The notes under the pieces: generated by a model
Databases searched by the model: none
Told to the model about the DNA's origin: nothing
What the model saw: only the letters and a program-made list of their open reading frames with translations
NCBI GenBank assembly: GCA_964402715.1
Contig: CAYODJ010000007.1
Coordinates: 1 to 64,000 of the forward strand
Length of the DNA: 64,000 bases
Source: an uncultured Victivallaceae bacterium
GTDB taxonomy: Bacteria > Verrucomicrobiota > Lentisphaeria > Victivallales > Victivallaceae
Reading direction: 5' to 3'
In this document: one piece after another, positions 18,090-61,835 of the stretch
Layout: the number at the start of each line of letters is the position of its first letter
How positions within the stretch are numbered: position 1 is the first letter of the stretch
Made by a program: the position numbers and the translations under genes

Positions 18090-18139
18090 GAACATCGTCC
18101 CGATTTCATCAGCAAATCAAAAGAGGAGAAAAAGAGAAA

Positions 18140-18484
18140 ATGAATTGTCCCTATTGTGACAATCCACTGCCGCTTCAGGCGGCCCAGTGCCCCAGCTGCG
18201 GCGCAACGGTTCCGCAGACGGCGGGTCAGGCGGGTGCATCTTCGCCGGTGACGCGGCAGAAGTCCCCGTGGCTGGCCTCGGTGCTCTCTCTGTTTCTATT
18301 CGCTGGATGCGGACAGATATACAACAGACAGGTCGGTAAGGGAATTCTCCTGATCATCCTCTGCATCATATGCTGGAGCGAAGATCTCGGTTTCATCCTA
18401 CAGATCGTCGGCGGCATCGACGCCTACAGGATCGCCGCGAAGATCAACGGCGGGCGGCAGGTGGGCAAATGGGAGTGGTTCTAG
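18140..18484 (+). CDS. Zinc-ribbon + TM2-domain membrane protein
   Basis: CPYCDNPLPLQAAQCPSCG ribbon; TM2-like LSLFLFAGCGQIYNRQVGKGILLIIL...GGIDAYRIA. Confidence 0.6.
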   Translation: MNCPYCDNPLPLQAAQCPSCGATVPQTAGQAGASSPVTRQKSPWLASVLSLFLFAGCGQIYNRQVGKGILLIILCIICWSEDLGFILQIVGGIDAYRIAAKINGGRQVGKWEWF

Positions 18485-18620
18485 CTCCCTGCGTCCGGGA
18501 ATAAATGCGCCGGATGAGTCAGCGGGATTATCGGTGCCGGAAACTGGAGCTGATGATCGGGAATAACCTGACAGAAAGTACTTCAATGACTAAAGTCAAG
18601 GGGATATGAAAAAAAGGTAG

Positions 18621-18707
18621 TGCCCCTATTGCAACAATCCACTGCCGCTTCAGGCGATCAAGTTCCCCAGCTGCGGCGGTGCTATAGGAGTTGCTGTATC
18701 GGCTTGA
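18621..18707 (+). pseudogene. Decayed duplicate of the zinc-ribbon N-terminus (fragment)
   Basis: CCCTATTG(C/T)(A/G)ACAATCCACTGCCGCTTCAGGCG matches the start of the 18140 gene nearly exactly. It encodes *CPYCNNPLPLQAIKFPSCGG..., the start codon is replaced by TAG, and a stop follows after 29 codons. Confidence 0.5.
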
Positions 18708-18769
18708 CAGATGAGCTGCAGGTGTTATCCCTGAAGGGCGAAAACCAAACAATAAGGAGTGTTTTGGCG

Positions 18770-19207
18770 ATGTTATGTAAGAATTGCGGGAATCAATTGG
18801 CGGGGGATGTGCGTGTCTGCCCCAAATGCGGCGTTGAGATCGGGGGGGGGGGGGGGACGACCTCCTCCGCAGGAAAATCCCCGTCGCCGTCGACGGATGA
18901 TTCGGGTTCGCTGGTGAGTCGGGTCACCGGTTTGCTAAAGCCGGCTGTCGTCCTGCCCCGGACGGCCGAAATCGAGGCTCTCGCTGCGGGGCCGGCAAAG
19001 AGTCTGAAGGTTTATATATTGCTGGCGCTCTTCCTCGGGAATTTGGGAGCTCATAGTTTCTATGCCGGATACCGTCGGAGAGCACTGACGGCGCTGATGT
19101 GTGCAATTCCTCCATGCTGCTGTCTGCTCACGATTTTCCCGGCAGTGGGGGCGATCCAGGATATGATTCACACAAGATGCGATGCGGCCGGGCGTCCCAT
19201 GATATGA
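18770..19207 (+). CDS. Zinc-ribbon + Gly-rich linker + TM2-domain membrane protein (paralog)
   Basis: MLCKNCGNQLAGDVRVCPKCG ribbon; TM2-like YILLALFLGNLGAHSFYAGYRRRALTALM. SD AAGGAG upstream of ATG 18770. Confidence 0.55.
   Translation: MLCKNCGNQLAGDVRVCPKCGVEIGGGGGTTSSAGKSPSPSTDDSGSLVSRVTGLLKPAVVLPRTAEIEALAAGPAKSLKVYILLALFLGNLGAHSFYAGYRRRALTALMCAIPPCCCLLTIFPAVGAIQDMIHTRCDAAGRPMI
18842..18857. repeat. Homopolymeric poly(G) tract (15-16 nt) inside the coding sequence, encoding a Gly5 run
   Basis: Read directly. The ORF track needs 15 G to keep the frame open, while my count of the printed text gives 16; I could not reconcile this to the single base. Confidence 0.7.
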
Positions 19208-19208
19208 G

Positions 19209-19586
19209 ATGAGGAGAGGCCTTAATTCTGCAACATGCGCGATCGTGGCCGTTCCGGCCATCGTCGCGCTTTATTTGCTGTACAGGGAGGGACCGCAGGG
19301 AGTGTGGTGGTTTCCGCCCTGCATTTTTCACCGCATAACTCACTGGTACTGTCCGGGGTGCGGCTCGACCCGTGCGGTGTACAGGCTGCTGCATGGCGAT
19401 CTTCGCGGATGTCTTACTGCCAATGTGCTGCTGTTTCCCGGTGTTCTGCTGACCTTATGTCTGGCGACAAGAAGAAATGTCACATTGACCGGCAGGGAAT
19501 ATTTCGGCGTCATAGCGCTCTACTCGTTTTACTGGATTGTCCGGAATCTGCCGATTGAGCCTTTTACTTTTCTGATGCCGCGGTAA
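19209..19586 (+). CDS. DUF2752-family small membrane protein
   Basis: HWYCPGCGSTRA motif characteristic of DUF2752, plus 3-4 TM helices. Starts 2 nt after the upstream stop. Confidence 0.55.
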   Translation: MRRGLNSATCAIVAVPAIVALYLLYREGPQGVWWFPPCIFHRITHWYCPGCGSTRAVYRLLHGDLRGCLTANVLLFPGVLLTLCLATRRNVTLTGREYFGVIALYSFYWIVRNLPIEPFTFLMPR

Positions 19587-20215
19587 TCCTGGGTGCTGTT
19601 CCGAATCATACGCAGGGAAGTTGCGCCTGAACAATTCATCCGGCCGCAGGTGTTCGTCATAAGGTTCGGGACGACGGCGGATTCTCCATAACAAGATATT
19701 TTTTCACTGTCATCCCACAGGGTTGAAAAACAGCCTTTTTGCGCCACTACATTGAGCTTACTTCTCTGATTCTTGCAGAACACCATTTCCCGATTTTTTC
19801 TTTCATTGAGTTTGTTCAAGTCGGAGCAAATCCCGGCAGGAAGCCCGTTCCGGAGCTGTGCTTGCACCGACAGGATGGATGCTGTCCCGCAGCATCGCAG
19901 GAAGCTTCCGCCATGTAGATGGCGATGTGCTCATCCCATGGGACGGCTGTGAAGTGAAATAATGCTCAATATCCATATCTTCGTCACAAGGAACTGCCGT
20001 CAGTTCGGACGGCATCAGGGTAAAACCGTCTGCGGCGCCGGATCCGCGGCGCCGCGCACATTCCCACCGCGACGGAGCGACGGGACGGCGGGGCGTTCCT
20101 CCGGAGGCTTCGCGCGGCAGCGCCGTCTCCCGGCCGGACGGATTTCATGATTTTCAGCGGGAAAAATTGCATTTATGCCGCCAAAGGACTATATTCCGTG
20201 TCGGCGGTGCGTCGG

Positions 20216-20289
20216 GGGCGATTAGCTCAGTCGGCTAGAGCGTCACGTTTACACCGTGAATGTCGGCGGTTCGAGTCCGTCATCGCCCA
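20216..20289 (+). tRNA. tRNA-Val (anticodon TAC), no encoded CCA
   Basis: Hand fold: acceptor GGGCGAT/ATCGCCC, anticodon stem TCACG/CGTGA with loop TTTACAC, T-loop TTCGAGT. One of the five T-stem pairs is an A/T mismatch, so this call is less secure than tRNA-Arg. Confidence 0.6.
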
Positions 20290-20664
20290 TGATCCCGGCC
20301 GCGGGCGCCGCAGACGATTTCCGGGAGCCCGTTCCGTCTCTCCCTCCGCCTCCCGGCATGCCGCTCTGAACCATGCCGTGATGCGGAACGGTGCGGCCGG
20401 AACGGGCGGCGTTTGCATTTTTCAAACGACACGGTATATTCTCCCGCCGGAGCGTCAATGTGGTTTTGACGGCAATCTTTAAACCGGCGGGACGCCGGAT
20501 GCGGCGCGACAGGACTCGGTCGGATTCCGTCTCACGGGCTTCGGTTCCCCTGCGGCGGTTTCCGCGCGGGATCGGAGAGTTCCGGAGACGAGTGGAATGC
20601 TCCGCCGGTGGTCGGAGAGCGCCGGGTCGGTCGTCCCGCTAAGACAAAAAGGAAGGGTTTCATC

Positions 20665-48255: not shown

Positions 48256-49059
48256 TCAGAGCTGAATCGTCCGATAGCTGAAAGTGCGCTTCAGCGGATC
48301 GCAGGTGATCTCCACCATGCTGCCGTTCCTCGTCACGGAACCGGCGCAGTTCTCCCCGCGGCCGTCGGCGTCCGTCCGGTTGTACGGCCGGTGCACGTGA
48401 CCGCAGAGAGACAGATCAATCTCTCCCGACTCTATCAGCCGCCGCACCGGTTTCTCGCCGAAAAGGCGGTGACGGAGCCGCAGGAGCGGATGATCTTCGA
48501 AGATCGGGTAGTGATTCACCAGGATGCGGGGACGGCGGTGACTCTCCCCGCACTGCCGCCGCAGCCATGCGGCGTCTTTCGCCGCGAGAAATCCCCAGGA
48601 ACAGAGCAGATTGGACGGCCTCGCGGTGTTGACCAGCAGGAAATCGCAGCCGGCATGCCGTCTCAGCAGCGGGAAGTCTCCGAAGCCGAAGTCGCCGCGG
48701 GAGAGGAAATCCACCATTCCGCGGACGGCTTCGACGCAGTGCGGCCTCCTGACGTAGCAGTCGTGGTTGCCGGGAGTGTACAGGAGGGGAATCCCCGATT
48801 CCCTGAGCGGACGCAGAATCGGCAGGACTTTGGCGAACTCGCCCGGCTGACCGGTGCTGGTGAGATCGCCGGTGCAGACGACGACGTCGGGGCGCGTTTC
48901 GAGTATGTAGTCCACGGCGTGCTTCAGCTTGTGGAGATCATGCCGGTAGCGGCGGCGGAAGCGGTAGTTGAAAACGCCGACCCAGCGTTTGTCCATGTAC
49001 GCGAACACGTCTTCGGCGGGACCTCCGGCATGAGGATCGGAAAAATGAATAATTTTCAT
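48256..49059 (-). CDS. Calcineurin-like metallophosphoesterase
   Basis: MKIIHFSDPH...GDLTSTG...GNHD...GHVH motifs. Occupies only the 3' quarter of the artefactual 1070-aa ORF. Confidence 0.7.
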   Translation of the reverse strand: MKIIHFSDPHAGGPAEDVFAYMDKRWVGVFNYRFRRRYRHDLHKLKHAVDYILETRPDVVVCTGDLTSTGQPGEFAKVLPILRPLRESGIPLLYTPGNHDCYVRRPHCVEAVRGMVDFLSRGDFGFGDFPLLRRHAGCDFLLVNTARPSNLLCSWGFLAAKDAAWLRRQCGESHRRPRILVNHYPIFEDHPLLRLRHRLFGEKPVRRLIESGEIDLSLCGHVHRPYNRTDADGRGENCAGSVTRNGSMVEITCDPLKRTFSYRTIQL

Positions 49060-49356
49060 GTCGGGAACGTGCGTCTCCGCTGCGTTTTGGTCCTCTTCCG
49101 CCCGAAAGGCAGGCGTACGGACATCCGATCTACTGTATCTCCGGAGACCGCCGATTTCAAGGGCGGAACACGGTTCCGCCGCCCTTCGGGCCGCCGCCGG
49201 ATGGCGCGATTTTTTCCGGCCGCCCTTGCATTTTGGCAAATCGGGTGCTAATAATACAGGCGTGGTGGTGTCTACTCGGAAGACGGACATCCATGTTCTG
49301 TGTTCATCGTGTCGGATTCGCGTGCGGGTTGTCTTAAGCGGGAGATAGTCGCGGTT

Positions 49357-51303
49357 ATGGATGACAGGAATGATTTGCGGGCTGCGGTGGACCGCTCCCG
49401 GCTGATGGTCAGATTGTCGGCGGTCGGCGGCGTCTTGTCCCTGACGATGCTGATACTGGTCGTGATCATGGGCGTCGTCAAGGAAAGTTTCGCGGGATCC
49501 GATGTTTTCTCTCTGTCCGTGATTCCGTTGAGCCTGTCGCTGTTCTTCGCGGCGGCGGCGCTGGTCTACGGCGTCCTCGACAATGCGGCGGCGGCGGAGA
49601 GGGAGAGCAGATTCCTGCTGGAGAGACGCAAGGACAACCGCGTGCTCGACGCCGAGGAGGACGTGCGCTTCACGGCGGGCCGCTCCTTCGAGAACTACAG
49701 GAAGTACGCCCCCTACGTGGTGACCGTGGCGGCCGCCCTGGGCGCGGCTCTGCTGCTCTTTCTGTTCTACCGCTACTGGGCGGCGAGGACGGGCGGCGGC
49801 CCGAAGCCGCTGAACGCCTTGAATTCGGCTCTCGTCTCGTCGGTTCTGATGCTGATATGCATGTTCGGCGGCGCCTTCTTCGTGGGGCAGTCCCGGCAGA
49901 GTTCGTTCCGGTGGCTGCGTCCGCTGGGGAGCTGGCTGGTCGGCGCCGGCGGCGTCATGCTGGGCGGCGCGGTGGTGTCCGTCTGCAACCACAATCAGGT
50001 GGCTCTCGACAGGCCTCTGTCGCTGGTCGTCTTCTGGCTGCTGGGGGCACTGGACGCGGAGCTGCTGCTGAATTTCGTCATCGAGTTCTACCGTCCCAGG
50101 ACGCTGGCGGAGACGCGTCCCCTCTTCGAAAGCAGGCTGCTGGCCCTGTTCACCGAGCCGGGCGGCGTCATGCGCAACATGGCCGACGCGCTGGACTACC
50201 AGTTCGGCTTCAAGGTTTCGGGGACGTGGATTTACGGGTTCGTCGAACGCTCGCTGTTTCCGATATGCGTGGTGTGGGCGCTCACCCTCTGGCTGTTCAC
50301 GTCGATCCACGAGGTCGGTCCGGACGAGGTCGGAATACGCGAACGTTTCGGGAGCGTGGTGTCCGAGAAGCCGCTCCGCGCCGGAATCTACTTCGAAATG
50401 CCGTGGCCGTTCGGCAGCATCAACCGGTTCAGCTGCGCCCGCGTCCATGAGATAGTCGCCGGCGAGAACGAACATGCCGAGGACGGCGACCGCCGGCAGG
50501 GGAAAAAGCCGGAGGTGATTCTCTGGACCAAGGCGCATGCCTCCGGCGAGAACAATTTCGTCGTGGCGGTCGAGCCGGAGGGGAGCATGCAGCAGCGCGA
50601 GGACCGGGACGGCGTCTCGGTCGCGTTTCTGTCGCTGGGGATGCCGGTGCAGTACCGCATCAGGGAGAGCCAGCTGATGGACTACGCCTACAGGAACCGG
50701 GATCCGGAGGCGATGCTGAGGCATATCAGCGAACAGGTGGTGACGGAGTATCTGGCGAGCTGCTCGCTGATGCACATCATGTCCGACGGAAGGCACGAGG
50801 CCGCAAACGTGATGCGCAGGCGCATCCAGAAGCTCGCCGACGAGGAGAGGCTGGGCGTCGACGTCGTCGCGGTCAACCTGCTGGGGGTTCATCCTCCGGT
50901 GGAGAAGGTCGCGCCGGCATTCCAGGAGGTCATCGGCGCCATGGAGCAGAAGGAGGCGAGGGTGCTGGAGGCGAAGGCCTACGCCGCGAAAATTCTTCCC
51001 GACGCCGAATCGAAGGCGCGGCAGGTCGTGCAGGACGCGGAGTCGTATCGGTACAGGACCAGCAAGGTCGCGGAGGCCGAGAGCCAGCGGTTTGACAAGC
51101 AGCTGCGTTCGTATCAGGCCATGCCCGCGATGTTCATGCTGAACTCCCGTCTGTCTCTTCTGGAGAAGGACGCGGCCAACGCCCGGAAATTCATTTTGAG
51201 CTCTTCGCTGCGCAACGAGATTTACGAGCTCAATTTCGAACAGAAGGAGCGCCTTGATCTTATCGACGCGGATTTGGGAACGTTGGTCGACCGGAAAAAG
51301 TGA
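49357..51303 (+). CDS. HflK-like SPFH protein with an about 300-aa six-TM N-terminal extension
   Basis: C-terminal half matches HflK (EVGIRERFGSVVS...GIYFEMPWPFGSI...KAYAAKILPDAESKARQ). Upstream are six predicted TM helices. The track start 49300 is a GTG; the first ATG is at 49357. Confidence 0.6.
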   Translation: MDDRNDLRAAVDRSRLMVRLSAVGGVLSLTMLILVVIMGVVKESFAGSDVFSLSVIPLSLSLFFAAAALVYGVLDNAAAAERESRFLLERRKDNRVLDAEEDVRFTAGRSFENYRKYAPYVVTVAAALGAALLLFLFYRYWAARTGGGPKPLNALNSALVSSVLMLICMFGGAFFVGQSRQSSFRWLRPLGSWLVGAGGVMLGGAVVSVCNHNQVALDRPLSLVVFWLLGALDAELLLNFVIEFYRPRTLAETRPLFESRLLALFTEPGGVMRNMADALDYQFGFKVSGTWIYGFVERSLFPICVVWALTLWLFTSIHEVGPDEVGIRERFGSVVSEKPLRAGIYFEMPWPFGSINRFSCARVHEIVAGENEHAEDGDRRQGKKPEVILWTKAHASGENNFVVAVEPEGSMQQREDRDGVSVAFLSLGMPVQYRIRESQLMDYAYRNRDPEAMLRHISEQVVTEYLASCSLMHIMSDGRHEAANVMRRRIQKLADEERLGVDVVAVNLLGVHPPVEKVAPAFQEVIGAMEQKEARVLEAKAYAAKILPDAESKARQVVQDAESYRYRTSKVAEAESQRFDKQLRSYQAMPAMFMLNSRLSLLEKDAANARKFILSSSLRNEIYELNFEQKERLDLIDADLGTLVDRKK

Positions 51304-51343
51304 GTCAATCGGGCAGGAAGTCATTCGAGGAGGCGAGCAGGTT

Positions 51344-52279
51344 ATGTCATCGGAACGTTTTTTAAGGCACTGGCCGACGGTTTTGCTCGGCGTGATTGTG
51401 GCGGCGGTGCTGTTCGCGGCGATCGTCACGTACCGCGTCAACCAGAACGAGTGCGCCGTGGTCACCATGCTGGGCAGGATTCAGCAGGGCAGTCCCGGAC
51501 CCGGGCTGCATCTGCGGTGGCCGTACCCGTTTCAGCGCGTCTACAAGTTCGATCGGCGCACCCGCTGCTTCGAGGGCAACGCCGGCAAACTGGAGGAGTC
51601 CACGACCGCGGACGGGCAGAACGTCCTGATCGGAACCTTTGTCAACTACCGGATCAGCGATCCCAAATTGTTCTTCACCTCTTTCGAAAGGATCGGCGAG
51701 GCCGAAAAGCAGCTGAACAACTGGATGAGGGATTCGCGGAACGCGGTCTTCGGCCGCTACCGCTTCGCTCAGATCATCAACACCGACCCGGCGAAGATGA
51801 AGCTCGGGGTCATGCAGGACGAGATTCTCAGGGAGCTGGCGGATCGCGCGGCTCCGTTCGGGCTGGAGATTCAGTTCGTCGGCATAAACGTGATAAACGT
51901 GCCGACGACGATCAGCGAGGAGGTGTTCAAGCGCATGATTCAGGAGCGCAAGGTGGTGGCTCAGGATTACCTGTCGAGAGGGGCGCAGGAGGCGTCCGAC
52001 ATCCGGACCAAGGCGGATCAGAAGCGCGCCGAGATCCTCACCAACGCCGAGGCCACCGCCAAGAGCATCCGCGCCCAGGGGGACGCCGAGGCCGCCAAGT
52101 ATTACGAGGTCTTCAAGGAGAATCCGGAGCTGGCGGCTTTCCTGAGAAAGCTCGATTCGCTGCGGCAGATTATGAAGGGCCGCACCACATTGGTGCTCGA
52201 CACCAACGCCGCCCCGTTCGACCTGCTGAAGATCGGAGCGGACAAGCTGGCTCCGGCGGCGGGGCCGGTCGCGCACTGA
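51344..52279 (+). CDS. hflC: HflC-like SPFH/band-7 protein
   Basis: Single TM, then an SPFH domain and a coiled-coil tail (RGAQEASDIRTKADQKRAEILTNAEA). SD GAGGAGG before ATG 51344. Confidence 0.65.
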   Translation: MSSERFLRHWPTVLLGVIVAAVLFAAIVTYRVNQNECAVVTMLGRIQQGSPGPGLHLRWPYPFQRVYKFDRRTRCFEGNAGKLEESTTADGQNVLIGTFVNYRISDPKLFFTSFERIGEAEKQLNNWMRDSRNAVFGRYRFAQIINTDPAKMKLGVMQDEILRELADRAAPFGLEIQFVGINVINVPTTISEEVFKRMIQERKVVAQDYLSRGAQEASDIRTKADQKRAEILTNAEATAKSIRAQGDAEAAKYYEVFKENPELAAFLRKLDSLRQIMKGRTTLVLDTNAAPFDLLKIGADKLAPAAGPVAH

Positions 52280-52304
52280 CGGTCGGCGGGAGAAAGGCGG
52301 AATC

Positions 52305-53435
52305 ATGATGAAAACGGGAGATGACGTCGTGGACGCTGGCGGCGGTCAGTATGAACTGGGGCTCAAGTCGCTGATCCGCAGCATGCGGATCGCCTTCTTC
52401 ATGCTGCTGCTGCTGATCGTCGGCATGCTGGTCTATTTCTTCTCGCTGGGCGGCTATGTGGAGGTGAAGCCGCAGGAGGCGGTGATCGTGCTCCGTTTCG
52501 GCAGATTTCATCAGGTCTACGACGTCGGATGGCACTGGTTCGTGCCGTATCCGGTCACGAGCTTCGTGACGGTGCGGACCAGTCCGCAGTTCCTGCGGGT
52601 CGATTTCACGTCGGACGAGACATCCATAGACGGAGGCGGGGAGAGCGGCCGTTCGCTCGAACCGGGAAGGGACTCCTATCTGCTCACCGGCGACGCCAAC
52701 ATCATTCACACCGCGTGGAACGTCGCGTACCAGATTTCCGATCCGAGGAAATACTACGAGCGGCTGCAGACCCCCGCAGATCCGACCGCCCCCGACGATC
52801 TGGAGAAGGACGAGTACGGCTATACGGGGCGGCGCGGACCGCAGACGCTGCTCACCAATCTTTTCCGGCAGGCGGTGATACATGTCACCTCCGGTCTTAA
52901 AGTCGACGACATTCTCTACTCCAAGCAGAACGTGTACCGCGAGTCGGTGCAGCGGACGTTCGCCCGTCTGGTCGAAAACGCGGACTGCGGAATCGAGGTG
53001 ACCGGCGTGACGCTGGATCGCGCGTCGGTGCCGCTCAAGACGAAAGCCTCGTTCGACGAGGTGGCCGCCGCCAGCAACACGATGTCCACGCTGATCAACG
53101 AGGCCAAGGAGTACATGGTGCGGGTCAACAACGAGGTGAAATCCGACACCGTGGGCGTCATCGCCGACGCGGAGACCTACCGGAAGCAGGTGGTGTCCGA
53201 GGTCAAGGCCGGGAGCCAGTATTTCCGCAGCATCAACGAGGCCTACCGGGCCAGTCCCCGGACGGTGCTGATGGCTCTCTACAATCAGACTCTCGCCGAC
53301 GTGCTGACGGAGCAGGACGGGAAGTACATTCTGGGCACCGCGACCGCCGCGGATCGCAAACAGGTTCGACTCAAGATAAATCCGGAGCCGCCGCGCCTGG
53401 CGAATCCGGCGAATGCGGAGACGGATAATCCATGA
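52305..53435 (+). CDS. Third SPFH/band-7 domain membrane protein
   Basis: Single TM then an SPFH-like core (VIVLRFGRFHQV...GDANIIHTAWNVAYQISDP). Stop overlaps the ATPase ATG. Confidence 0.55.
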   Translation: MMKTGDDVVDAGGGQYELGLKSLIRSMRIAFFMLLLLIVGMLVYFFSLGGYVEVKPQEAVIVLRFGRFHQVYDVGWHWFVPYPVTSFVTVRTSPQFLRVDFTSDETSIDGGGESGRSLEPGRDSYLLTGDANIIHTAWNVAYQISDPRKYYERLQTPADPTAPDDLEKDEYGYTGRRGPQTLLTNLFRQAVIHVTSGLKVDDILYSKQNVYRESVQRTFARLVENADCGIEVTGVTLDRASVPLKTKASFDEVAAASNTMSTLINEAKEYMVRVNNEVKSDTVGVIADAETYRKQVVSEVKAGSQYFRSINEAYRASPRTVLMALYNQTLADVLTEQDGKYILGTATAADRKQVRLKINPEPPRLANPANAETDNP

Positions 53436-55483
53436 CTAGCCATGTGAACTGCAAATCTTGTTCGTTGGGCACGGAGGAGAGCGGAGAAGTCCGCCGTGAC
53501 CGTTCCGACGGAGACGACGGGGCGATCCGCGCGCCGGAGCACCGCCACGGGGACCTGAATCAGGCGGAGGCGGGAAGAGTCGCCTGTCCCTGCGGCCACG
53601 ACGCCGTCGGCGGCGTCGGGCACGACCGCGCCATGGGACGGGTGGCGTTCGCCCTCTGGGGCGGCATGCTGTGCGCCAACTCCTTTCTGCTGGAATGGCT
53701 GTTTCCGGAACAGCGGTTCTCCGCCATGCTCAGCGCCTTCCTCGGGGCCGTGGTGCTGGCTCTGCCCATCGTCGTCACCGCGATCAAGGATCTGCTGAAC
53801 GGCAAGGTCTACATGAACGAACTGGTGGCTCTGGCCATACTGGCGGCGCTGGTGAGCGGCGACTTCCAGAGCGCGGGCATCATCGCGTTCTTCCTGCTGC
53901 TGACCATCATCATCGAAACGAGGACCGCCAGCGGCGCGCAGCGCTCCATCGAGGAACTGATCAAGCTGACGCCGAACACCGCCAGGAAACTGGACGGCGA
54001 CCGCGAGGTGGAGGTCGACGTCTCGACGCTCCGGATCGGGGACGTCATAAGAGTGCGTCCGGGGGAGAACTTCCCCGTGGACGCCAGGATTCTGCACGGG
54101 GAGAGCACCGTCAACCAGTCGTCCATCACCGGCGAATCGCTGCCGGTCGACAAGGATGTGGACGACGAGGTGTACGCCGGCACGCAGAATCTGACCGGCG
54201 TGGTGGATCTGGAGGTCACCCGCGTCGGCGAGGACACCACTCTCGGCAAGGTGAAGGAGATGATCCTCGCTGCGGAGGGGAGCCGCTCCCCGGTGGTCCG
54301 GATCATCGACCGGTACGCGGGCTACTACACGCCGACGGTGTTGATGCTGGCCGGCGTCACGTGGTGCTTCACGACCGATATGGACAGGGTCATCACCCTG
54401 ATGGTGATCGCCTGTCCGTGCGCGGTCGTACTGGCGACTCCGACGGCGGTGGTGGCCGCCGTGGCCGCCGCGGCCCGGCTGGGCATTCTGATCAAGAACG
54501 TGAGCCATCTGGAGCTGGCCGCGCGCATCACCGCGTTCGTGTTCGACAAGACGGGGACCCTGACCGACGGCGTCCTGTCCGTCGTGAAGCTCAACGCCTT
54601 TTCCGGCTGCACGCAGGCGGAGCTGCTGAAGACGGCGGCGTCGGCGGAGCGTTACAGCAATCACCCGACGGCGCTGGCGCTGCAGTCGCTGGCCCAGGAG
54701 GCCGGCGTGCGGCTGGATTCCGTCGAGGATTTCCAGGAAGTCCACGGAAAGGGCGTGATGGGCCGGCTGGGCGGCGACGTGTGCCGGATCGGCAGGGCGA
54801 AGTGGATGACGGAGCAGGGGATAGAGATTCCGGAGCATGAGATTTCGGAGCAGGAGGGGATGAGCGTGGTCTACGTGGCGCGGGGCGGACGGCTGCTGGG
54901 ATGGATAGGATTCAAGGACAAGCTGCGGCGCGAGTCCGCCGCCATGATCGGCGGTCTGCGGAAACTTGGTGTCCGTTTCGTCGCGATGGTGACCGGGGAC
55001 AGGACGTCGGTGGCGGAGACGGTGGCTCAGCAGCTGCAGCTGGACGAGTTCCGCAGCGAGTGTCTGCCTGCGGGGAAGGTGGAGTTCGTCGAGACCGTCA
55101 AGGAGAAAGGTCTGGTCGCGGTGGTCGGCGACGGCGTGAACGACGCCCCGGCGCTGACGGCCGGGGATCTCGGCATCGCCATGGGCGCGATCGGAAGCGA
55201 CATCGCCATCAACAGCGCCTCCATCGCATTGATGACGAACGATCTCCGCCGCATACCGATGCTCGTGCATCTGTCCCGGAAGTCGCGCATGGTCATCAAT
55301 CAGAATCTGGTCTTCGGCATGCTGTTCGTCGTCGGCGGCATGGTCCTGTCGGTGTTCGGGTGGATGACTCCCATATGGGCCGCGGTGCTCCATACCTGCA
55401 GCACGCTGATCATCATCTTCAACAGCGGGCGTCTGGTCCGCACCGGTGAGGAATTGACGCTCGGGGAAAAATTCGATGGTTGA
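53432..55483 (+). CDS. P1B-type heavy-metal-translocating ATPase (CPC motif) with Cys/His-rich N-terminus instead of a canonical HMA domain
   Basis: TGES, CPC (VIACPCAVVLATP), DKTGTLT, GDGVNDAP. N-terminus has CKSC and CPCGHD His/Cys clusters. Confidence 0.8.
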   Translation: MTSHVNCKSCSLGTEESGEVRRDRSDGDDGAIRAPEHRHGDLNQAEAGRVACPCGHDAVGGVGHDRAMGRVAFALWGGMLCANSFLLEWLFPEQRFSAMLSAFLGAVVLALPIVVTAIKDLLNGKVYMNELVALAILAALVSGDFQSAGIIAFFLLLTIIIETRTASGAQRSIEELIKLTPNTARKLDGDREVEVDVSTLRIGDVIRVRPGENFPVDARILHGESTVNQSSITGESLPVDKDVDDEVYAGTQNLTGVVDLEVTRVGEDTTLGKVKEMILAAEGSRSPVVRIIDRYAGYYTPTVLMLAGVTWCFTTDMDRVITLMVIACPCAVVLATPTAVVAAVAAAARLGILIKNVSHLELAARITAFVFDKTGTLTDGVLSVVKLNAFSGCTQAELLKTAASAERYSNHPTALALQSLAQEAGVRLDSVEDFQEVHGKGVMGRLGGDVCRIGRAKWMTEQGIEIPEHEISEQEGMSVVYVARGGRLLGWIGFKDKLRRESAAMIGGLRKLGVRFVAMVTGDRTSVAETVAQQLQLDEFRSECLPAGKVEFVETVKEKGLVAVVGDGVNDAPALTAGDLGIAMGAIGSDIAINSASIALMTNDLRRIPMLVHLSRKSRMVINQNLVFGMLFVVGGMVLSVFGWMTPIWAAVLHTCSTLIIIFNSGRLVRTGEELTLGEKFDG

Positions 55484-55518
55484 ATGTCCTGTTCAAACGA
55501 GAGGAAGTTTCGCTTAAT

Positions 55519-56691
55519 ATGCCACAGCAGTCGACACCGGTAGTCAGCGCCGTCGGGCTGACCAAGACGTTCCGTGATTTCTGGGGGCGTCCAAAGGCGA
55601 AAGCCGTCAACGACGTTGATTTCGAGATCAGCGAGGGCGAGGTCGTCGGGCTGCTGGGGCCGAACGGCTCCGGCAAGTCGACCACGGTGAAGATGATTCT
55701 GGGGCTGCTGTATCCCACCGGCGGAACGCTGTCGGTGCTGGGAAGATCGCCGCGCGCGGTGGAGACCAAGCGCGAAATCGGCTATCTTCCGGAGGAGTCC
55801 TATCTGTACAAGTATCTCACGGCCGAGGAGACTCTGGATTTCTTCGGCGCCATGTTCAATCTGTCGCGGGCGGAGCGCAGACGGCGCGTCGACCAGCTGC
55901 TGGACATGGTCGGGATGGCGCATGCCAGGCGTCGGCGCGTCGGCGAGTTCTCCAAGGGAATGGCGCGGCGGATAGGGCTGGCGCAGGCCATGATCAACGA
56001 CCCGTCCTTTCTGGTTCTGGACGAACCGACTTCCGGTCTGGATCCTCTGGGGTGCAAGGAAGTCAAGAACATGATCCTGATGCTCAAGAAACGCGGCAAG
56101 ACGGTGCTGATCACCAGTCATCTGCTCAGCGACATCGAGGACGTCTGCGATCGGGTTATCATCCTGTACGGCGGGAGAGTGCGCGCCGTCGGCTCGCTGC
56201 AGGAGCTTCTCACCGTCGAGGACGAGAACAGGATCATCACGCCGGCCCTGCCGCCGGAGGCGATGAACAAGCTCGTGGCGTTGCTGCGGGAACATCTCCG
56301 CGGCGAAAAGTTTCTGATCGACCATCCGCATCGGACGCTCGAGGAATTCTTCCTGGACGTCATAAACCGCGCCAAGGAGGAAAGCGTCGAAACCGCCGGC
56401 GTCGTGGGCGGCGGAGAGATTGCGGAGTACCTCTCGGAGGACGGGAAGCGGGGCACGGTGCTCGATGAACTGATGAACGAGCAGGTGGTCGCGGCTTCCG
56501 TCGCCGAGGAAGCCCCTCGTGACGGCGCGGACGCGGCTCCGGACGTGGAGGAGAAACTGACGGAGCTGACGGACGCGGACGAACGCGGCGGTCATGAGGA
56601 GATGACGGCGGAGGAGATGCGGACAAAGGAGAAGGAGCAGATGGACGCCGTCAATGCCAGACTCGACGATTTGCTCGGCGGCAGAAAGTGA
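55519..56691 (+). CDS. ABC transporter ATP-binding protein (ABC-2 subtype) with acidic C-terminal extension
   Basis: Walker A GPNGSGKST, signature FSKGMARR, Walker B LVLDEPTSGLD. ATG 55519; the track's TTG 55480 overlaps the ATPase stop. Confidence 0.75.
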   Translation: MPQQSTPVVSAVGLTKTFRDFWGRPKAKAVNDVDFEISEGEVVGLLGPNGSGKSTTVKMILGLLYPTGGTLSVLGRSPRAVETKREIGYLPEESYLYKYLTAEETLDFFGAMFNLSRAERRRRVDQLLDMVGMAHARRRRVGEFSKGMARRIGLAQAMINDPSFLVLDEPTSGLDPLGCKEVKNMILMLKKRGKTVLITSHLLSDIEDVCDRVIILYGGRVRAVGSLQELLTVEDENRIITPALPPEAMNKLVALLREHLRGEKFLIDHPHRTLEEFFLDVINRAKEESVETAGVVGGGEIAEYLSEDGKRGTVLDELMNEQVVAASVAEEAPRDGADAAPDVEEKLTELTDADERGGHEEMTAEEMRTKEKEQMDAVNARLDDLLGGRK

Positions 56692-56854
56692 TCGCAGGCG
56701 AGTGCGCCGCCGGGGAATTTCCTCCTCCCGTCCGGGCGCGTTCCGCAGAGATTTCCGTGTGTTTCGCTCCGGGCGGGGCGCGCGCCGGCGATGAAGAGAT
56801 GAGAAATGGCGGCCTCGGGGAGAGGCTTGTCAGGTTTATGGACGCTTTTACGAT

Positions 56855-58285
56855 ATGAGAGCATTCGTCGCCATAGTTTGTCTGACGCTTCGCAACGCGG
56901 TGCGTTCGCATATCTTCCAGCTTCTGCTGTGCGTGCTGCTGCTGTGCGTCGGTCTGATTCCGACCATGATCAGCGGCGACGGCACCGCGACGGGATTCAT
57001 CCAGATATCGCTGCTTTACAGTCTGTCGGCGGTGATGCTGGTGCTGTCGCTGTCGTCGCTGTGGCTCGGCTGTCACATCATGACTCATGACGTGGACAGC
57101 TATCAGCTTCACATGGTCGTCGTCAAACCGGTGTCGCGATCGGTGATATGGCTGGGCAAATTCAGCGGTATTCTGCTCGTCAACACGGTTCTCCTGCTCT
57201 GCTCCGCGACGGTCGTCTATTTCATCATGATCGCGAAATTTTACCGGCAGGATTTTTCCCGGGAGGACCGCGATCGCATTGAAAACGAGGTCATGGTCGG
57301 GCGCAGGGTGTTTCTGCCGGATCGCCCCGACCTGGATCAGGCGGCGCGCGGCGCGCTGAGCGAGAAGCTGAAGGTGCTGGAGAAGCAGGGCAAGTCGCTG
57401 GATCGATCGCCGCAGGGCCAGGAGCGGATGCTCGCGGAGATGAAACGGGAGATTCTGGCGCGGATTTCCGAGCTCAGGCCGGGGCAGACCGTCTTCTGGA
57501 CTTTCTCCGGCATACCGGAGAATCTTCAGCGTCCGCTGTACATGCGCTACCGCGTGTACATCGACAAGGTCGCCACGGAGGGGCAGCGTCTGACTCACGG
57601 AATGTGGCAGATCGGCAAGCCGCGCGTCAAGGAGGAGAGGGGCGGCAACGTGTTCGAGCAGGCACGGCGGCGGGAATATGATCTATACATGTTTCAGCTG
57701 AGCGAGCTTCCGGAGCAGATCAAGAGCGGCGACTTTCATGAGAAGACGCTTCCGCCGGAATGGGGCGTCGTCGCGCCTGACGGCAAGGTGGTGATCGGCT
57801 ACACGAACCTCGACCGGCAGAGAGGCACGCAGCACTTTCAGCCGGCCGACGGTCCGAAGATCCTTCTGCGCGTCAGCGGATTCGCCGCCAACTATTTCCG
57901 CGCCGTGTTCGTGATTTTCCTGGAACTTGTGATTCTGACGGGGCTTGGATGCACCGCCGCCGCTCTGCTCAGCATGCCGACGGCGGTTTTCGTGGTGATC
58001 TCGTATCTGCTGTTCGGGAGTTTCGCCTCGTATCTGACCGGGGCGAGCTATTTCGGCAACACTGCGGACTACGTGGGCTACTACATCGGCAAACTGCTGC
58101 TCTGGGTGATAATACCGATTCAGAATTTCGAGGTGACGGGGCTGGTGGCGAACGGAGAGCTGGTGGAGTTCTCCCTGATATGGCGTCTCGTTTCCGGATA
58201 TCTGCTGCTGCGGGCGTTGCCGCTGATGGCGTTCGGCATCCTGATGTACCGTCGGCGCGAAATAGGGTTGATCATACGTAAATGA
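56855..58285 (+). CDS. ABC-2 family transporter permease with large extracytoplasmic loop
   Basis: N-terminal and C-terminal TM bundles flank an about 250-aa loop; follows the ABC ATPase. Confidence 0.55.
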   Translation: MRAFVAIVCLTLRNAVRSHIFQLLLCVLLLCVGLIPTMISGDGTATGFIQISLLYSLSAVMLVLSLSSLWLGCHIMTHDVDSYQLHMVVVKPVSRSVIWLGKFSGILLVNTVLLLCSATVVYFIMIAKFYRQDFSREDRDRIENEVMVGRRVFLPDRPDLDQAARGALSEKLKVLEKQGKSLDRSPQGQERMLAEMKREILARISELRPGQTVFWTFSGIPENLQRPLYMRYRVYIDKVATEGQRLTHGMWQIGKPRVKEERGGNVFEQARRREYDLYMFQLSELPEQIKSGDFHEKTLPPEWGVVAPDGKVVIGYTNLDRQRGTQHFQPADGPKILLRVSGFAANYFRAVFVIFLELVILTGLGCTAAALLSMPTAVFVVISYLLFGSFASYLTGASYFGNTADYVGYYIGKLLLWVIIPIQNFEVTGLVANGELVEFSLIWRLVSGYLLLRALPLMAFGILMYRRREIGLIIRK

Positions 58286-59877
58286 ATCCTTTCAAGACGC
58301 TTGTCATGTACTGCGCGGTCCTGGCGGCGACGCTGCTGCTGCTCTTCGGCGTGTACCGCGCGGAGAGGCGGCTCGACGACATGGTGCGTGAGCATCATCT
58401 TCATTTCACCGGTCAGGTGAGCAACGCCCCGCCGCTGGTGTCTTTCACCACGGTGGCGCTGGGAAGTTTCCGCGGACTGATCGCGGATCTGCTCTGGCTG
58501 CGTGCGCTGGGATTGCAGGACAAGGGCAACTACTTCGAAATGGTGCAGCTGGCCCGCTGGATCACCGACCTGCAGCCGACGTTCTCCGGCGCGACCGCCT
58601 ATCTGGCGTGGAACATGGCGTACAACATCTCGGTGACCTGCTCCGACTACGCGGATCGGTGGCGCTGGGTCAACGAAGGCATAAAGCTGATTCGGGAGCG
58701 GGCTCTGAATTACAATCCGGAAGATCCGTCCCTGTACAAGGAGCTGAGCTGGATTTTTCAGCACAAGCTCGGCGATGTTCTCGACGACGCGAATCTGTAT
58801 TACAAGAATCAGATTGCGCTGGCGATGACCGGGATTCTCGGAAGAAGCACCGACGTCGCCGGCATGGCCGCCGCTCCGAGCGGAGAAAAGGGTTTCATGG
58901 AGAAATACGGCGGCGACAAGCAGCTGTGGGCGGCCGCGGCGGCGGCGGGATGTCCGACTTACGGGGAACTGTTCGCCGCGTTCAGAAAACGGGGGAACGC
59001 GCTGCCTCCGTCTTTTTCGGAGCGGCTGGGGGAATCGCGGGCGCATGATCTTGAAAACCATTTCCGCGCGGAACTGCTGCGCGAGAACTACAAGCTCGAC
59101 GCGCGCGTCATGAACGAGATAGACGTGAAATACGGCAAACTGGACTGGCGGGTTCCGGAATCGCAGGCCATCTACTGGGCGACGATGGGTCTCAAGAAAA
59201 CGCCCGGCAACCGCGATGTTAACTGCGAACGCGTCATCACCCAGTCGCTGTACGAGTCGTTCCGCAGCGGTCGGCTGCTGATGCTGGATCCGGAAAATTT
59301 CGAGGGAGTGGTTTCGGTGCCCAACCTGGATCTGGTCGACGCGGTCGACGCGACATACCGGGAGGCGTATGAAGCCAACGAGGAAAATCCGACTTTTCTG
59401 ACCGCGAGAATCAATTTCATGAAGGAGGCGATAGCCATCCTGTTCAATTACGGCAAGTTCAAGAAGGCGGAGGAATATTTCAAGACCCTGTCCAAGATGG
59501 ACATGGAGGCGAGGCTCGCCCGTTCCGTGGAGGATTTCGTCATGAAGCGGTGGACGGAGGACGTGAGGGACGCCTCGGTCAAGCAGGCCAACGACATCAT
59601 AAGCGGTCTCATCTTCAGGAGTCTGTTCTATTCGGTCCACGGAGAGGACGACGCGGCGCTGGCGAACGAAAGGATCGCGCGTTACATCTACAACGCCTAC
59701 ATGACGTGCAACGCCAAGGGGCAGGAGTTCAGAGTGGGGCTGCTGCCGTACGTCGAAATCAAGCGCGCGGTGGTGGAGAACTGTCTGAAGGCGTTTCCGC
59801 CCGCCATGGTGACGATACTTAAAGCGAAAATAGAAGAGGAACAGGCCGGCTCGGCATCGGCGGGCGCCGGCAAGTGA
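58282..59877 (+). CDS. Hypothetical membrane-anchored protein (531 aa), unknown family
   Basis: One N-terminal TM; ATG overlaps the permease stop (ATGA). I recognise no domain. Confidence 0.45.
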   Translation: MNPFKTLVMYCAVLAATLLLLFGVYRAERRLDDMVREHHLHFTGQVSNAPPLVSFTTVALGSFRGLIADLLWLRALGLQDKGNYFEMVQLARWITDLQPTFSGATAYLAWNMAYNISVTCSDYADRWRWVNEGIKLIRERALNYNPEDPSLYKELSWIFQHKLGDVLDDANLYYKNQIALAMTGILGRSTDVAGMAAAPSGEKGFMEKYGGDKQLWAAAAAAGCPTYGELFAAFRKRGNALPPSFSERLGESRAHDLENHFRAELLRENYKLDARVMNEIDVKYGKLDWRVPESQAIYWATMGLKKTPGNRDVNCERVITQSLYESFRSGRLLMLDPENFEGVVSVPNLDLVDAVDATYREAYEANEENPTFLTARINFMKEAIAILFNYGKFKKAEEYFKTLSKMDMEARLARSVEDFVMKRWTEDVRDASVKQANDIISGLIFRSLFYSVHGEDDAALANERIARYIYNAYMTCNAKGQEFRVGLLPYVEIKRAVVENCLKAFPPAMVTILKAKIEEEQAGSASAGAGK

Positions 59878-59953: not shown

Positions 59954-61180
59954 ATGATTGTTTTGATTGCCAGCGTGGCCGTGGCGCTGCTCGTGTCGTC
60001 GCTCTGTTCTCTGCTGGAGGCCGCGCTGCTCAGTCTGACGCCGAGCCAGCTTGCACAGATCCGGCAGCGGAACGTCGCCATGGGCGACGTCTGCCGCCGC
60101 CTGAAATACGAAATCGAGAAACCGATCGCCGTCATACTGATCGTCAACACGGCCGCGCACACGTTCGGTGCGTCCGTGGCCGGCGCGCAGTTCAATGAAC
60201 TGTACGGAGCCAGATGGCTCGGGGCGTTCACGCTGGTCTTCACTCTGATGATGGTGCAGTACACGGAGATTCTGCCCAAGACGCTGGGTGTGCGTTACAA
60301 CCGGAAAATCATGTGCTGCTCGGCGAGGCCTTTGTCGCTGATGATCGCGGTCATGATGCCGTTGATTGTGCTGATCAGGTGGTTCAACCGGCCGTTCGAA
60401 CTGTCGGAGGCGAAAAACAGCGTTTCGGCGGCGGACGAGATTTCCGCGCTGGCGGCTCTGGCGCGGAGCAACCGGCAGATCAGCAGGCGTCAGGAGCGCA
60501 TCATTAAGGTTGCGCCTATGCTGTCGCAGAAAAGAGCCGAGCAGATCATGCTGCCGTCGGAGAATATCTCGTTCCTGTCCAGCCGTCAGACGCTGACCGA
60601 AGCCATCAACTGGGTCGGAATGGACTTTCACACCCGTTATCCGGTCTGCAGGGGCAGCAACAGGGATCAGGTTCTGGGCTACGTCAACTTCAAGGAAGTG
60701 GTGGCCACGTACAGAGCCAACCCGGAACACGGGAAACTGATGGACATCCTGCGGCCGATCAGTTTCGCCGCCCCGGGGGAGTCGGCGGCGGAGCTGCTGG
60801 AGCGGTTCGTGTCGCGGCAATGTCATATGGCGGTGGTCCGCGGCTCGCGGGGGCGGACGCTGGGTCTGGTGACGCTGGAGGACATCGTCGAGGAACTGCT
60901 GGGCGATCTGGACGACGAGTTCGATCCGCTGCCGAGGACCTTCTATTCGCTCGGCGGGGCGATATGGGTGGTCGGCGGCGGCGTGCCCCTTACGCTGCTG
61001 GCGAGGCGTACGTGGCTGGCGCTTCCCAGACGTACGGAGCCGGTCGCGATATGGTTCGCGGGCAGGCTGAAGCGGATGCCGCGCATCGGAGACACGCTGA
61101 AGCACAACAACGCGGAGTTTCATGTGCACAAGGTGCGCCGCGGAAGGGTCTTGGAGTTCGGCGTCAGGCAGATTGTCTAG
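59954..61180 (+). CDS. CNNM/HlyC-CorC family transporter (DUF21 + CBS pair + CorC_HlyC)
   Basis: DUF21 4-TM N-terminus, CBS pair, and a C-terminal transporter-associated domain (GDTLKHNNAEFHVHKV). Confidence 0.75.
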   Translation: MIVLIASVAVALLVSSLCSLLEAALLSLTPSQLAQIRQRNVAMGDVCRRLKYEIEKPIAVILIVNTAAHTFGASVAGAQFNELYGARWLGAFTLVFTLMMVQYTEILPKTLGVRYNRKIMCCSARPLSLMIAVMMPLIVLIRWFNRPFELSEAKNSVSAADEISALAALARSNRQISRRQERIIKVAPMLSQKRAEQIMLPSENISFLSSRQTLTEAINWVGMDFHTRYPVCRGSNRDQVLGYVNFKEVVATYRANPEHGKLMDILRPISFAAPGESAAELLERFVSRQCHMAVVRGSRGRTLGLVTLEDIVEELLGDLDDEFDPLPRTFYSLGGAIWVVGGGVPLTLLARRTWLALPRRTEPVAIWFAGRLKRMPRIGDTLKHNNAEFHVHKVRRGRVLEFGVRQIV

Positions 61181-61214
61181 TTGCCGTAAAACGGATGAAG
61201 GAAAAGGCGATAAG

Positions 61215-61835
61215 ATGAAACGGCGTTTGGTGTCTGTATGTTCACTTTCCGCATGGCTGCTGATGCTGTTGCTGGACGGGTGCGTGGACGTGGATTATGT
61301 CGGACAGCGATTCGATCCGCCGCCGGGGGCGGGCATGCCCGTCGTGTTCGGCGTTCAGGCGGATTATCCGAAAGAGGATTACAGGCCTTTCGGACGCGCG
61401 GTTTTCACCGCTCCGGCGGACTACGGCATATTGGAGCTGCAGGAAAAGGCGGAGAACACCGCCAGGGAGTACGGCGCTGACGCTGTGAAGATTGTATTCG
61501 CGGGAAGGTCGCTGATGGAGTCGCCCTACCGTATGCCGCAGGCGGACGACTCCGGAAGAGCGTCGTCCGACGGCATGAGACCGTATGTGGAGGCTTTCGG
61601 AGATGAGGCGCAGTTTCCCGGTGCGCGAATCGAGCGGCATGAGCTGGTCGTCAAGGCGCTGATGCTGATGAAAAGGGAGCGTTTCGCCAGACTGATGTCG
61701 GAACGGGGAGCGACAGTGAAGACAGCGGAGGCTCCGGACACGGACTCCGAGAGCGGCGCGGCCGCCGTCGACAGGGCCGAGAACGGAGCCGAGGAGGACG
61801 GAGCCGGGACGGAGCCGGCTCCTTCCGCAGATTGA
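61215..61835 (+). CDS. Lipoprotein with acidic low-complexity C-terminus
   Basis: MKRRLVSVCSLSAWLLMLLLDGC lipobox; SD AAGGAAAAGG before ATG 61215. Confidence 0.45.
   Translation: MKRRLVSVCSLSAWLLMLLLDGCVDVDYVGQRFDPPPGAGMPVVFGVQADYPKEDYRPFGRAVFTAPADYGILELQEKAENTAREYGADAVKIVFAGRSLMESPYRMPQADDSGRASSDGMRPYVEAFGDEAQFPGARIERHELVVKALMLMKRERFARLMSERGATVKTAEAPDTDSESGAAAVDRAENGAEEDGAGTEPAPSAD

Follow-up and report, generated by a model that had tools for sequence, protein, structure and literature searches.

Proteins of the SPFH family, which includes HflK and HflC, prohibitin, stomatin, flotillin and erlin, build cages, and the choice of the client that such a cage serves is a central open question. 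In Escherichia coli the hflK and hflC genes are found in an hfq-hflX-hflKC cluster, far from ftsH. The HflK/HflC-FtsH cage of that organism (PDB 7VHP and 7WI3) is built from adjacent paralogues, each with a transmembrane (TM) helix, an SPFH domain in the periplasm and a long helix. A scaffold of a different kind is known from Mycobacterium tuberculosis, where a Ctp P1B-type pump depends for its stability and clustering on the operon-encoded membrane protein PacL, which binds the N-terminal metal-binding domain of that pump and displays a behaviour that its authors call flotillin-like (PMC9374683, PMC13460109). PacL, a small protein of the DUF1490 family, has a TM helix, EA repeats on the cytoplasmic side and, optionally, a DLHDHDH motif; it is not an SPFH protein. 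The locus considered here, at positions 49357-55483 of a 64,000-nt stretch of DNA (the window) from an uncultured Victivallaceae bacterium (Lentisphaerota; assembly GCA_964402715.1, contig CAYODJ010000007.1), contains three SPFH genes that run directly into the gene for a P1B-type ATPase.

This arrangement was proposed from the letters of the DNA alone, in what is called here the sequence-only reading, and it is borne out by profile matches of the proteins to Band_7 and TIGR01525. The four genes, G1 to G4, open a row of nine closely packed genes (G1-G9) that extends on the plus strand from 49357 to about 61835. A 300-bp divergent gap separates G1 from a metallophosphoesterase gene (48256-49059, minus strand), and two independent public contigs carry gene calls that are identical to those of the window. 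The evidence set out below tips the scales, by a modest margin, towards a module in which three HflK/HflC-type subunits form an SPFH assembly devoted to metal transport, and which is found in the Lentisphaerota and in relatives of which some are labelled Planctomycetota. The features of the module are as follows.

49357-51303, plus strand: G1, a 648-aa fusion protein with a Pfam Band_7 match at residues 319-542 (E 6e-9)
G1 residues 1-245: divergent six-TM domain resembling the cation diffusion facilitator (CDF) family, lacking both HxxxD sites
G1 residues 245-298: conserved cytoplasmic motif, YRPR..ESRLL..TEPGG..LDYQFGFKVS.TW
G1 residues 299-317: anchor helix, TM7
G1 residues 318-648: HflK-like SPFH domain and a helix of about 90 residues
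51344-52279, plus strand: G2, HflC-like protein of the SPFH family with one TM helix at its N-terminus (Band_7, E 1.8e-23)
52305-53435, plus strand: G3, HflK-like SPFH protein of 376 aa with a single TM helix at residues 29-47 (Band_7, E 7e-20)
53432-55483, plus strand: G4, P1B-type ATPase of 683 aa (E1-E2_ATPase, E 3e-51)

The order G1-G2-G3-P1B is one conserved, tightly packed unit, which is found from the Lentisphaerota to a clade with Planctomycetota names. A scan of one genome per GTDB species returned at least 576 stretches with relatives of G1, and the best 80 of these, all from Lentisphaerota-type genomes or metagenome-assembled genomes (MAGs), were analysed. Loci with at least 2.3 kb of sequence beyond G3 were counted as evaluable, and in all of these (66/66, from different species) the next gene on the same strand encodes a P1B ATPase, so that the phylogenomic profiling of SPFH-P1B adjacency suggested by the sequence-only reading came out in its favour. 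Since the gene calls are identical on two contigs and the order is kept in 66 of 66 loci, the arrangement is more than a product of chance. The genes are separated by median gaps of 37 nt (G1-G2), 17 nt (G2-G3) and only 2 nt (G3-G4, in 65 loci), the last of which never exceeds 73 nt. In the window itself the stop codon of G3 and the start codon of G4 share an ATGA at 53432-53435 on the plus strand, as can be read directly from the sequence; the overlap that had been pointed out earlier is thus real in this genome but is no general trait, as it occurs in 14 of the 65 loci, and it is the adjacency that is general. A terminator between G3 and G4 had been named as an observation that would speak against the coupling of the two, and a scan for promoters and terminators, whose output was overall at chance level, gave no terminator-like site at this junction. 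The pump is the most conserved gene of the operon, with 58-91% identity against 37-60% for the SPFH genes.

The same architecture is found well outside the Lentisphaerota. When a profile of the G1 N-terminus was run against 1.84 billion representative sequences, it recovered 847 clusters at 50% identity, and the architecture of G1 is fixed, because nearly all of these are 620-770 aa long and carry the CDF-like domain at the N-terminus. The 116 full-length representatives fall into six main clusters at about 30% identity, and the genomic contexts of the five non-Lentisphaerota clusters were looked up. Clusters 1, 2, 5 and 6, whose members are 23-35% identical to G1, have the trio followed by a P1B gene (loci L084, L085, L089/90, L093/94, L095 and L096), with ABC genes coming next where the contig goes on. 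Names given to cluster 2 (relatives of the L085 member) are Planctomycetota, Brocadiia or Brocadiaceae. The pumps beside these distant trios have a common signature, CPC ... H-x-x-[SAG]-[TS] ... FNSARLVRxGE, which is also that of G4.

By sequence comparison all three SPFH proteins are of the HflK/HflC type. Their SPFH parts have the layout of this subfamily (SPFH3), namely an N-terminal TM helix, then the SPFH domain in the periplasm and after it a long coiled-coil helix, and the genes lie side by side in the order K-C-K. G2, for which the start of the public gene call was taken, scores 145.5 bits against the NCBIfam model TIGR01932 for hflC, above the cut-off of 134.4, and its best PDB match is HflC (7vhp_G, E 6e-24). 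G3 reaches 135.7 bits and G1 113.8 bits against the hflK model TIGR01933, both below the cut-off of 159.4, and the best PDB matches are HflK for G3 (7vhp_E, E 1e-16) and, at the sequence level, E. coli HflK for the C-terminal half of G1. None of the three, all of which are Band_7 proteins, has a Pfam match to DUF1490, the family of PacL.

The six-helix N-terminal domain that the sequence-only reading had placed ahead of the G1 anchor is confirmed by Kyte-Doolittle analysis, which gives seven hydrophobic segments (23-41, 55-73, 120-138, 158-176, 192-210, 224-242 and 299-317), corresponding to six helices and the anchor, with a charge distribution that is consistent with an N-in, SPFH-out topology. 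At the level of remote homology this extension can be traced to a CDF transporter whose metal site has been lost. A Foldseek comparison of the N-terminus ranks ZnT3, YiiP and ZnT4 first, with probabilities of 0.99-1.0 and weak E-values (0.05-1), whilst an hhalign comparison of a broad G1-family profile, made from the 116 representatives, with the CDF domain profile gives 96.3% probability and an E-value of 1.5e-9 over 197 columns, against at most 9% probability for reversed or unrelated TM profiles used as controls. One distant member of the family has a faint precomputed match to Cation_efflux; a PDB profile search with the alignment of the G1 N-terminus found nothing. Throughout the family the residues aligned to the CDF HxxxD sites in TM2 and TM5 are apolar, and the cytoplasmic C-terminal domain of a CDF protein is replaced by the motif, TM7 and the SPFH domain. 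The hallmark of the family is the cytoplasmic segment that leads from TM6 to the anchor helix, where the sequence is nearly invariant.

It is conceivable that G1 is itself an active transporter or channel, whose CDF-like domain would still move an ion or protons through a non-canonical site and be gated by the SPFH ring, with the pump and the ABC exporter acting in series or in parallel rather than as clients. Such a role, which would accord with a six-TM fold that is retained in structure predictions of high model confidence, with polar positions (E81, R188 and E235) that are nearly invariant and with the complete transport site of a paralogous fusion protein described below, nevertheless seems to us very improbable, given that apolar residues replace both HxxxD motifs family-wide and that conservation in the protein is lowest in the TM helices and is found instead in the cytoplasmic motif that follows TM6.

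A paralogous system, in which the transporter domain is intact, provides further evidence for a connection with metals. In a Victivallis MAG (L071) a second cluster is located just upstream of the G1-G4 operon of the same genome, and its genes are, in order:

Gene 1: 509-aa protein in which a full Pfam Cation_efflux domain (E 5e-26) is fused to an HflK-like SPFH domain
Gene 2: HflC-like protein
Gene 3: HflK-like protein
Gene 4: PpiC-type rotamase
Gene 5: ZntA-type pump with an HMA domain, CPC, a Lys in M5, ADTG in M6 and a His-rich C-terminus

This CDF-HflK system (L071:1308-9754, with further examples at L091:1593-11924 and in L097-L176) was examined in 80 metagenome loci. The fusion protein has more than 1,500 homologues, under names that span the Kiritimatiellota, Planctomycetota, Lentisphaeria, Omnitrophota and Chloroflexota, and public annotation describes these merely as "FtsH protease activity modulator HflK". 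The histidines of both HxxxD sites are present in 117 of 117 sequences and the aspartates in 103-104 of them. Wherever the sequence allows, the trio is complete, and a membrane-anchored PpiC rotamase flanks it in most of the 80 loci. A ZntA-like P1B gene lies within 10 kb of the trio in 14 of the 29 loci that are at least 15 kb long, and one other genome has the row HMA, HMA-P1B, DUF2933, Rieske, PpiC, CDF-HflK, HflC-like, HflK-like and YHS. In a matrix of BLAST scores the orthology of G1 to the fused subunit (C1) was not separated from that to C3 of the CDF-HflK trio.

The sequence-only reading had made use of the absence of ftsH. The 64-kb window indeed holds neither ftsH nor any further SPFH or P1B gene, but as an argument this carries no weight, because the E. 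coli hflKC genes are also distant from ftsH and, as far as we are aware, hflKC is not normally placed next to it. Hence the absence says nothing against the main rival explanation, which is canonical HflK/C-FtsH quality control: the trio would be an ordinary FtsH modulator, and the pump either a substrate of FtsH, with its turnover under the control of the cage, or a passenger on the transcript. This explanation draws on the SPFH halves, which are nearest to E. coli HflK and HflC, on G2, which exceeds the hflC equivalog cut-off, and on the degradation of the P-type ATPase MgtA by FtsH, a point that is cited in PMC13220708. However, a passenger would not be expected to stay adjacent, at gaps of about 2 nt, over a phylum-level divergence, and G1 and G3 fall short of the hflK equivalog cut-off. 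The explanation also leaves the CDF-derived domain of G1 and the intact CDF-HflK fusions unaccounted for. Moreover, ftsH occurs within 10 kb of G1 in just two of the 80 loci and within 10 kb of CDF-HflK in none of 80. In these two cases (L013:3565-4362 and L017:1725-2522) some 3.7 kb separate ftsH from G1 downstream of it, and the direct adjacency of ftsH in related genomes, which had been put forward as counter-evidence, is therefore not seen. Taken together, we place FtsH quality control on the unlikely side.

The pump gene has its own peculiarities. G4 scores 547 bits against the heavy-metal P-type ATPase model TIGR01525 (cut-off 346) and has eight predicted helices along with the hallmarks of a P1B ATPase, which are the HAD fold, the phosphorylation site DKTGT at 372, TGES at 233 and the M4 CPC at 328. 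Neither Pfam nor NCBIfam gives a match to an HMA domain; the N-terminus has the Cys/His motifs CKSC, EHRHGD and CPCGHD. The earlier proposal that a Cys/His-rich N-terminus takes the place of an HMA domain therefore stands for the window copy, but its His-rich part is variable. Amongst the orthologues the N-tail consists of a variable His/Cys-rich stretch followed by a conserved C-(P/I)-x-C-G-H..G-x-G-H-D-R-x-M-G ahead of helix MA, and it has been lost in about eight lineages or loci. The window copy has CPCGHD..GVGHDRAMG in the N-tail, A-C-P-C in M4, NQN..G..GG in M5, H-T-C-S-T in M6 and FNSxRLVRTGE at the C-terminus. The 62 orthologues have (A/S)-C-P-C in M4, with the Cys residues at 100%, NQN..G..GG in M5, with neither YN nor Lys, and H-(A/T)-x-S-T in M6 (H 95%, S 100%, T 92%), such that Ala or Thr occupies the position of the P1B-4 Glu.

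In the Argüello/Rosenzweig classification the Cu+ pumps of P1B-1 have YN in M5, MxxSS in M6 and usually an HMA domain. G4 has none of these, with NQNLxFG..GG in M5 and H-x-x-S-T in M6. The Zn/Cd/Pb pumps of P1B-2, such as ZntA, combine the M4 CPC with Lys in M5 and Asp (DxG) in M6, and the Co/Zn/Fe pumps of P1B-4, such as CoaT and sCoaT, have SPC in M4 and HEGxT in M6 (PMC8880997). G4 shares the CPC with P1B-2 but has neither the M5 Lys nor the M6 Asp in any of the 62 sequences, and it shares with P1B-4 a His at the HEGxT position but lacks both the SPC and the Glu. Since its M4, M5 and M6 motifs match none of the three signatures, G4 is, by sequence, outside P1B-1, -2 and -4 and belongs to a dedicated P1B subfamily with CPC in M4 and H-x-x-S-T in M6. 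Its relatives in the PDB are about equidistant (AfCopA 334 bits, sCoaT 314, LpCopA 308 and ZntA 292). A His-rich tail in place of an HMA domain is a feature of many Zn/Co pumps (PMC8880997), and G4 is probably an exporter of a divalent metal, Zn/Co/Cd/Fe-like rather than Cu+. Rfam searches of the window and of the 5' region detected no riboswitch and so give no clue to the metal at the RNA level.

The SPFH family is tied to metal transport here because the G1 extension is CDF-like and because a paralogous trio contains an intact CDF-HflK protein. In the metal-transport module that we favour, G1, G2 and G3 would come together in a ring or cage like that of HflK/C, on the periplasmic side of the inner membrane, in which G2 would alternate with the two HflK-type subunits, G1 and G3. 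The pseudo-CDF domain of G1 and its cytoplasmic motif may then dock or regulate the co-translated P1B ATPase, whilst the SPFH assembly would confine, stabilise or gate the pump and probably does likewise for a co-encoded ABC-2 exporter. The data themselves establish the gene content, the protein architecture, the remote homology of the G1 extension to CDF proteins, the packing of the operon and the synteny at phylum level, and from these we infer the formation of a ring, the physical contact between scaffold and pump, and the metal that is transported.

A number of observations weigh against this module. FtsH could be part of the G1-G3 assembly. In cluster 3 of the G1 family the trio is followed directly by ABC, permease and G7-like genes, and the pump is found 2 kb upstream in L083, where it is of the same subfamily, and is absent within 10 kb in L087 and L088; the pump is therefore not an obligatory neighbour of the trio. 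A deep branch of the Lentisphaerota has the trio and the pump without ABC genes. The assignment of the G1 extension to the CDF family is one of remote homology: at E<=1 Pfam gave no Cation_efflux match for the N-terminus and a spurious CitMHS match alone, a narrow profile of 26 G1 sequences gave nothing in hhalign against a single CDF sequence, and the relationship emerged solely when broad profiles were used on both sides.

A bolder form of the idea would see the HflK/HflC-type cages of these systems not as regulators of FtsH but as closed compartments, periplasmic and membrane, around metal exporters, an integral CDF protein in one case and the P1B pump with the ABC exporter in the other. 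We hold this to be quite improbable. If it is true, such a compartment would be a private chamber for metal release or metalation, and the constant PpiC-type chaperone beside the CDF-HflK trio would fit a chamber in which exported proteins are folded or metalated.

Downstream of the pump the row continues with five further genes.

55480-56691, plus strand: G5, ABC ATPase with a DrrA/GldA-like nucleotide-binding domain (ABC_tran, E 4e-33), with the ATG at 55519 as a possible alternative start
56855-58285, plus strand: G6, membrane protein resembling an ABC-2-type permease (ABC2_membrane_2, E 2e-4, under the cut-off)
58282-59877, plus strand: G7, TM-anchored protein of 531 aa with one N-terminal TM helix, whose start overlaps the G6 stop
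59954-61180, plus strand: G8, member of the CNNM/CBS/CorC_HlyC family, a family of the Mg/Co-efflux type
61212-61835, plus strand: G9, small, weakly conserved protein with an N-terminal hydrophobic segment and LLLDGC, possibly a lipoprotein

The sequence-only reading had tied the SPFH assembly to metal transport, and although the conserved unit, the CDF-like G1 and the CDF-HflK paralogue uphold that link, it overlooked the ABC genes: the linkage of G5 to the trio is about as tight as that of the pump, and G6 and G7 are found in most loci. G5, in which some 150 aa of acidic C-terminal extension come after the nucleotide-binding domain, follows G4 directly in 53 of 58 loci. Homologues of G6 in distant loci have a precomputed ABC2_membrane_2 match. 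The window copy of G7 has no Pfam match, and 19 of 34 homologues have weak matches to TPR_17.

This raises the alternative that the trio in truth partners the ABC-2 exporter and the TPR protein that goes with it (G5-G7), serving for instance envelope or lipid export, and that the pump was inserted secondarily and does not interact directly with the trio. On these grounds one would expect what is seen, namely that G5 is present in all distant loci that offer enough sequence, those of the clade without a pump in the operon among them, and that the overlap of G6 and G7 is near-universal (47/53 loci). Yet the deep Lentisphaerota branch has kept trio and pump whilst having no ABC genes, the pump subfamily appears to be specific to the context of the trio, and the CDF ancestry of G1 points to metals; we hold this alternative to be improbable.

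Some further observations concern the remainder of the row and of the window. The only sizeable gap within the row, of 163 nt (56692-56854), lies between G5 and G6 and contains a sigma-70-like hexamer pair at 56827-56854, a possible internal promoter, although the number of such sites in the scan is not above chance; in related loci the two genes mostly abut or overlap. A homologue of G8 is found downstream in about 30 Lentisphaerota loci, and G8 would be a third gene of a metal-transport type in the row. A gliding-motility (GldA/GldE) interpretation of G5 and G8 was rejected, with scores far under the cut-offs. A minus-strand open reading frame of 1070 aa at 48256-51468 was likewise rejected as a gene, as only its 3' part (48256-49059, the metallophosphoesterase) is real and the rest is antisense to G1; it is an artefact of high G+C content that could mislead an interpretation based on open reading frames. 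At 18000-20300 the G+C content dips to 0.544, from about 0.63 elsewhere, just ahead of a tRNA gene at 20216-20289, and this region could be an island or integration site.

In comparison with the E. coli HflK/HflC cage, the present system has three subunits rather than two, G1 adds a six-TM CDF-like domain and a unique cytoplasmic motif, and the three genes are firmly tied to those of a P1B pump and an ABC exporter. With the CDF proteins (YiiP, ZnT/SLC30) G1 shares the six-TM fold, the N-in topology and a homology at profile level, but it is without the HxxxD/DxxxD site A and the cytoplasmic C-terminal domain, is not seen by the Pfam model Cation_efflux (PF01545), and has in addition a conserved TM2-TM3 loop and the fusion to HflK. 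The CDF-HflK trio is similar in its order of a TM-domain-fused HflK-like, an HflC-like and an HflK-like protein, in its occurrence in the same genomes (L071, for example) and in its metal-gene neighbourhoods; it differs in its intact CDF domain, in the absence of the YRPR...LDYQFGF motif and in a constant neighbour that is the PpiC-type rotamase instead of the CPC/HxxST pump and ABC set. The eukaryotic regulators of channels and transporters, stomatin, MEC-2 and podocin, belong to another SPFH subfamily, have a cytoplasmic orientation and show neither the fusion nor the operon.

Full-text searches of the open-access literature gave no description of this operon, in keeping with what the sequence-only reading had supposed, and none of the CDF-HflK fusion, an earlier mention elsewhere being possible. 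Neither cation transporters nor ATPases are mentioned anywhere in a survey of prokaryotic SPFH operons from 2009. What is new here is the conserved G1-G2-G3-P1B order, the CDF-HflK paralogue and the dedicated ATPase subfamily, whereas SPFH scaffolds and P1B operons are known as kinds. In these genes the client appears to be written into the scaffold, as a transporter domain, intact or degenerate, that is fused to HflK and as a dedicated pump that is co-translated with it. The system thus offers a case, defined by its genes and open to testing, in which an SPFH assembly has specialised in membrane transport. It also delimits a P1B subfamily whose metal site is unassigned and shows that many hundreds of database entries for "FtsH protease activity modulator HflK" hold an unannotated transporter domain.

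The PacL-Ctp effluxosome would seem, by analogy, to be the closest functional counterpart, as in both cases one operon places a scaffold gene immediately ahead of the gene for a P1B ATPase, although it is this operon logic alone that is shared. In place of PacL the candidates here are SPFH proteins of the HflK/C type that face the periplasm, in another phylum and next to a pump of another subfamily. If the favoured reading is right, they would represent a second, independent type of effluxosome-like organisation for P1B pumps.

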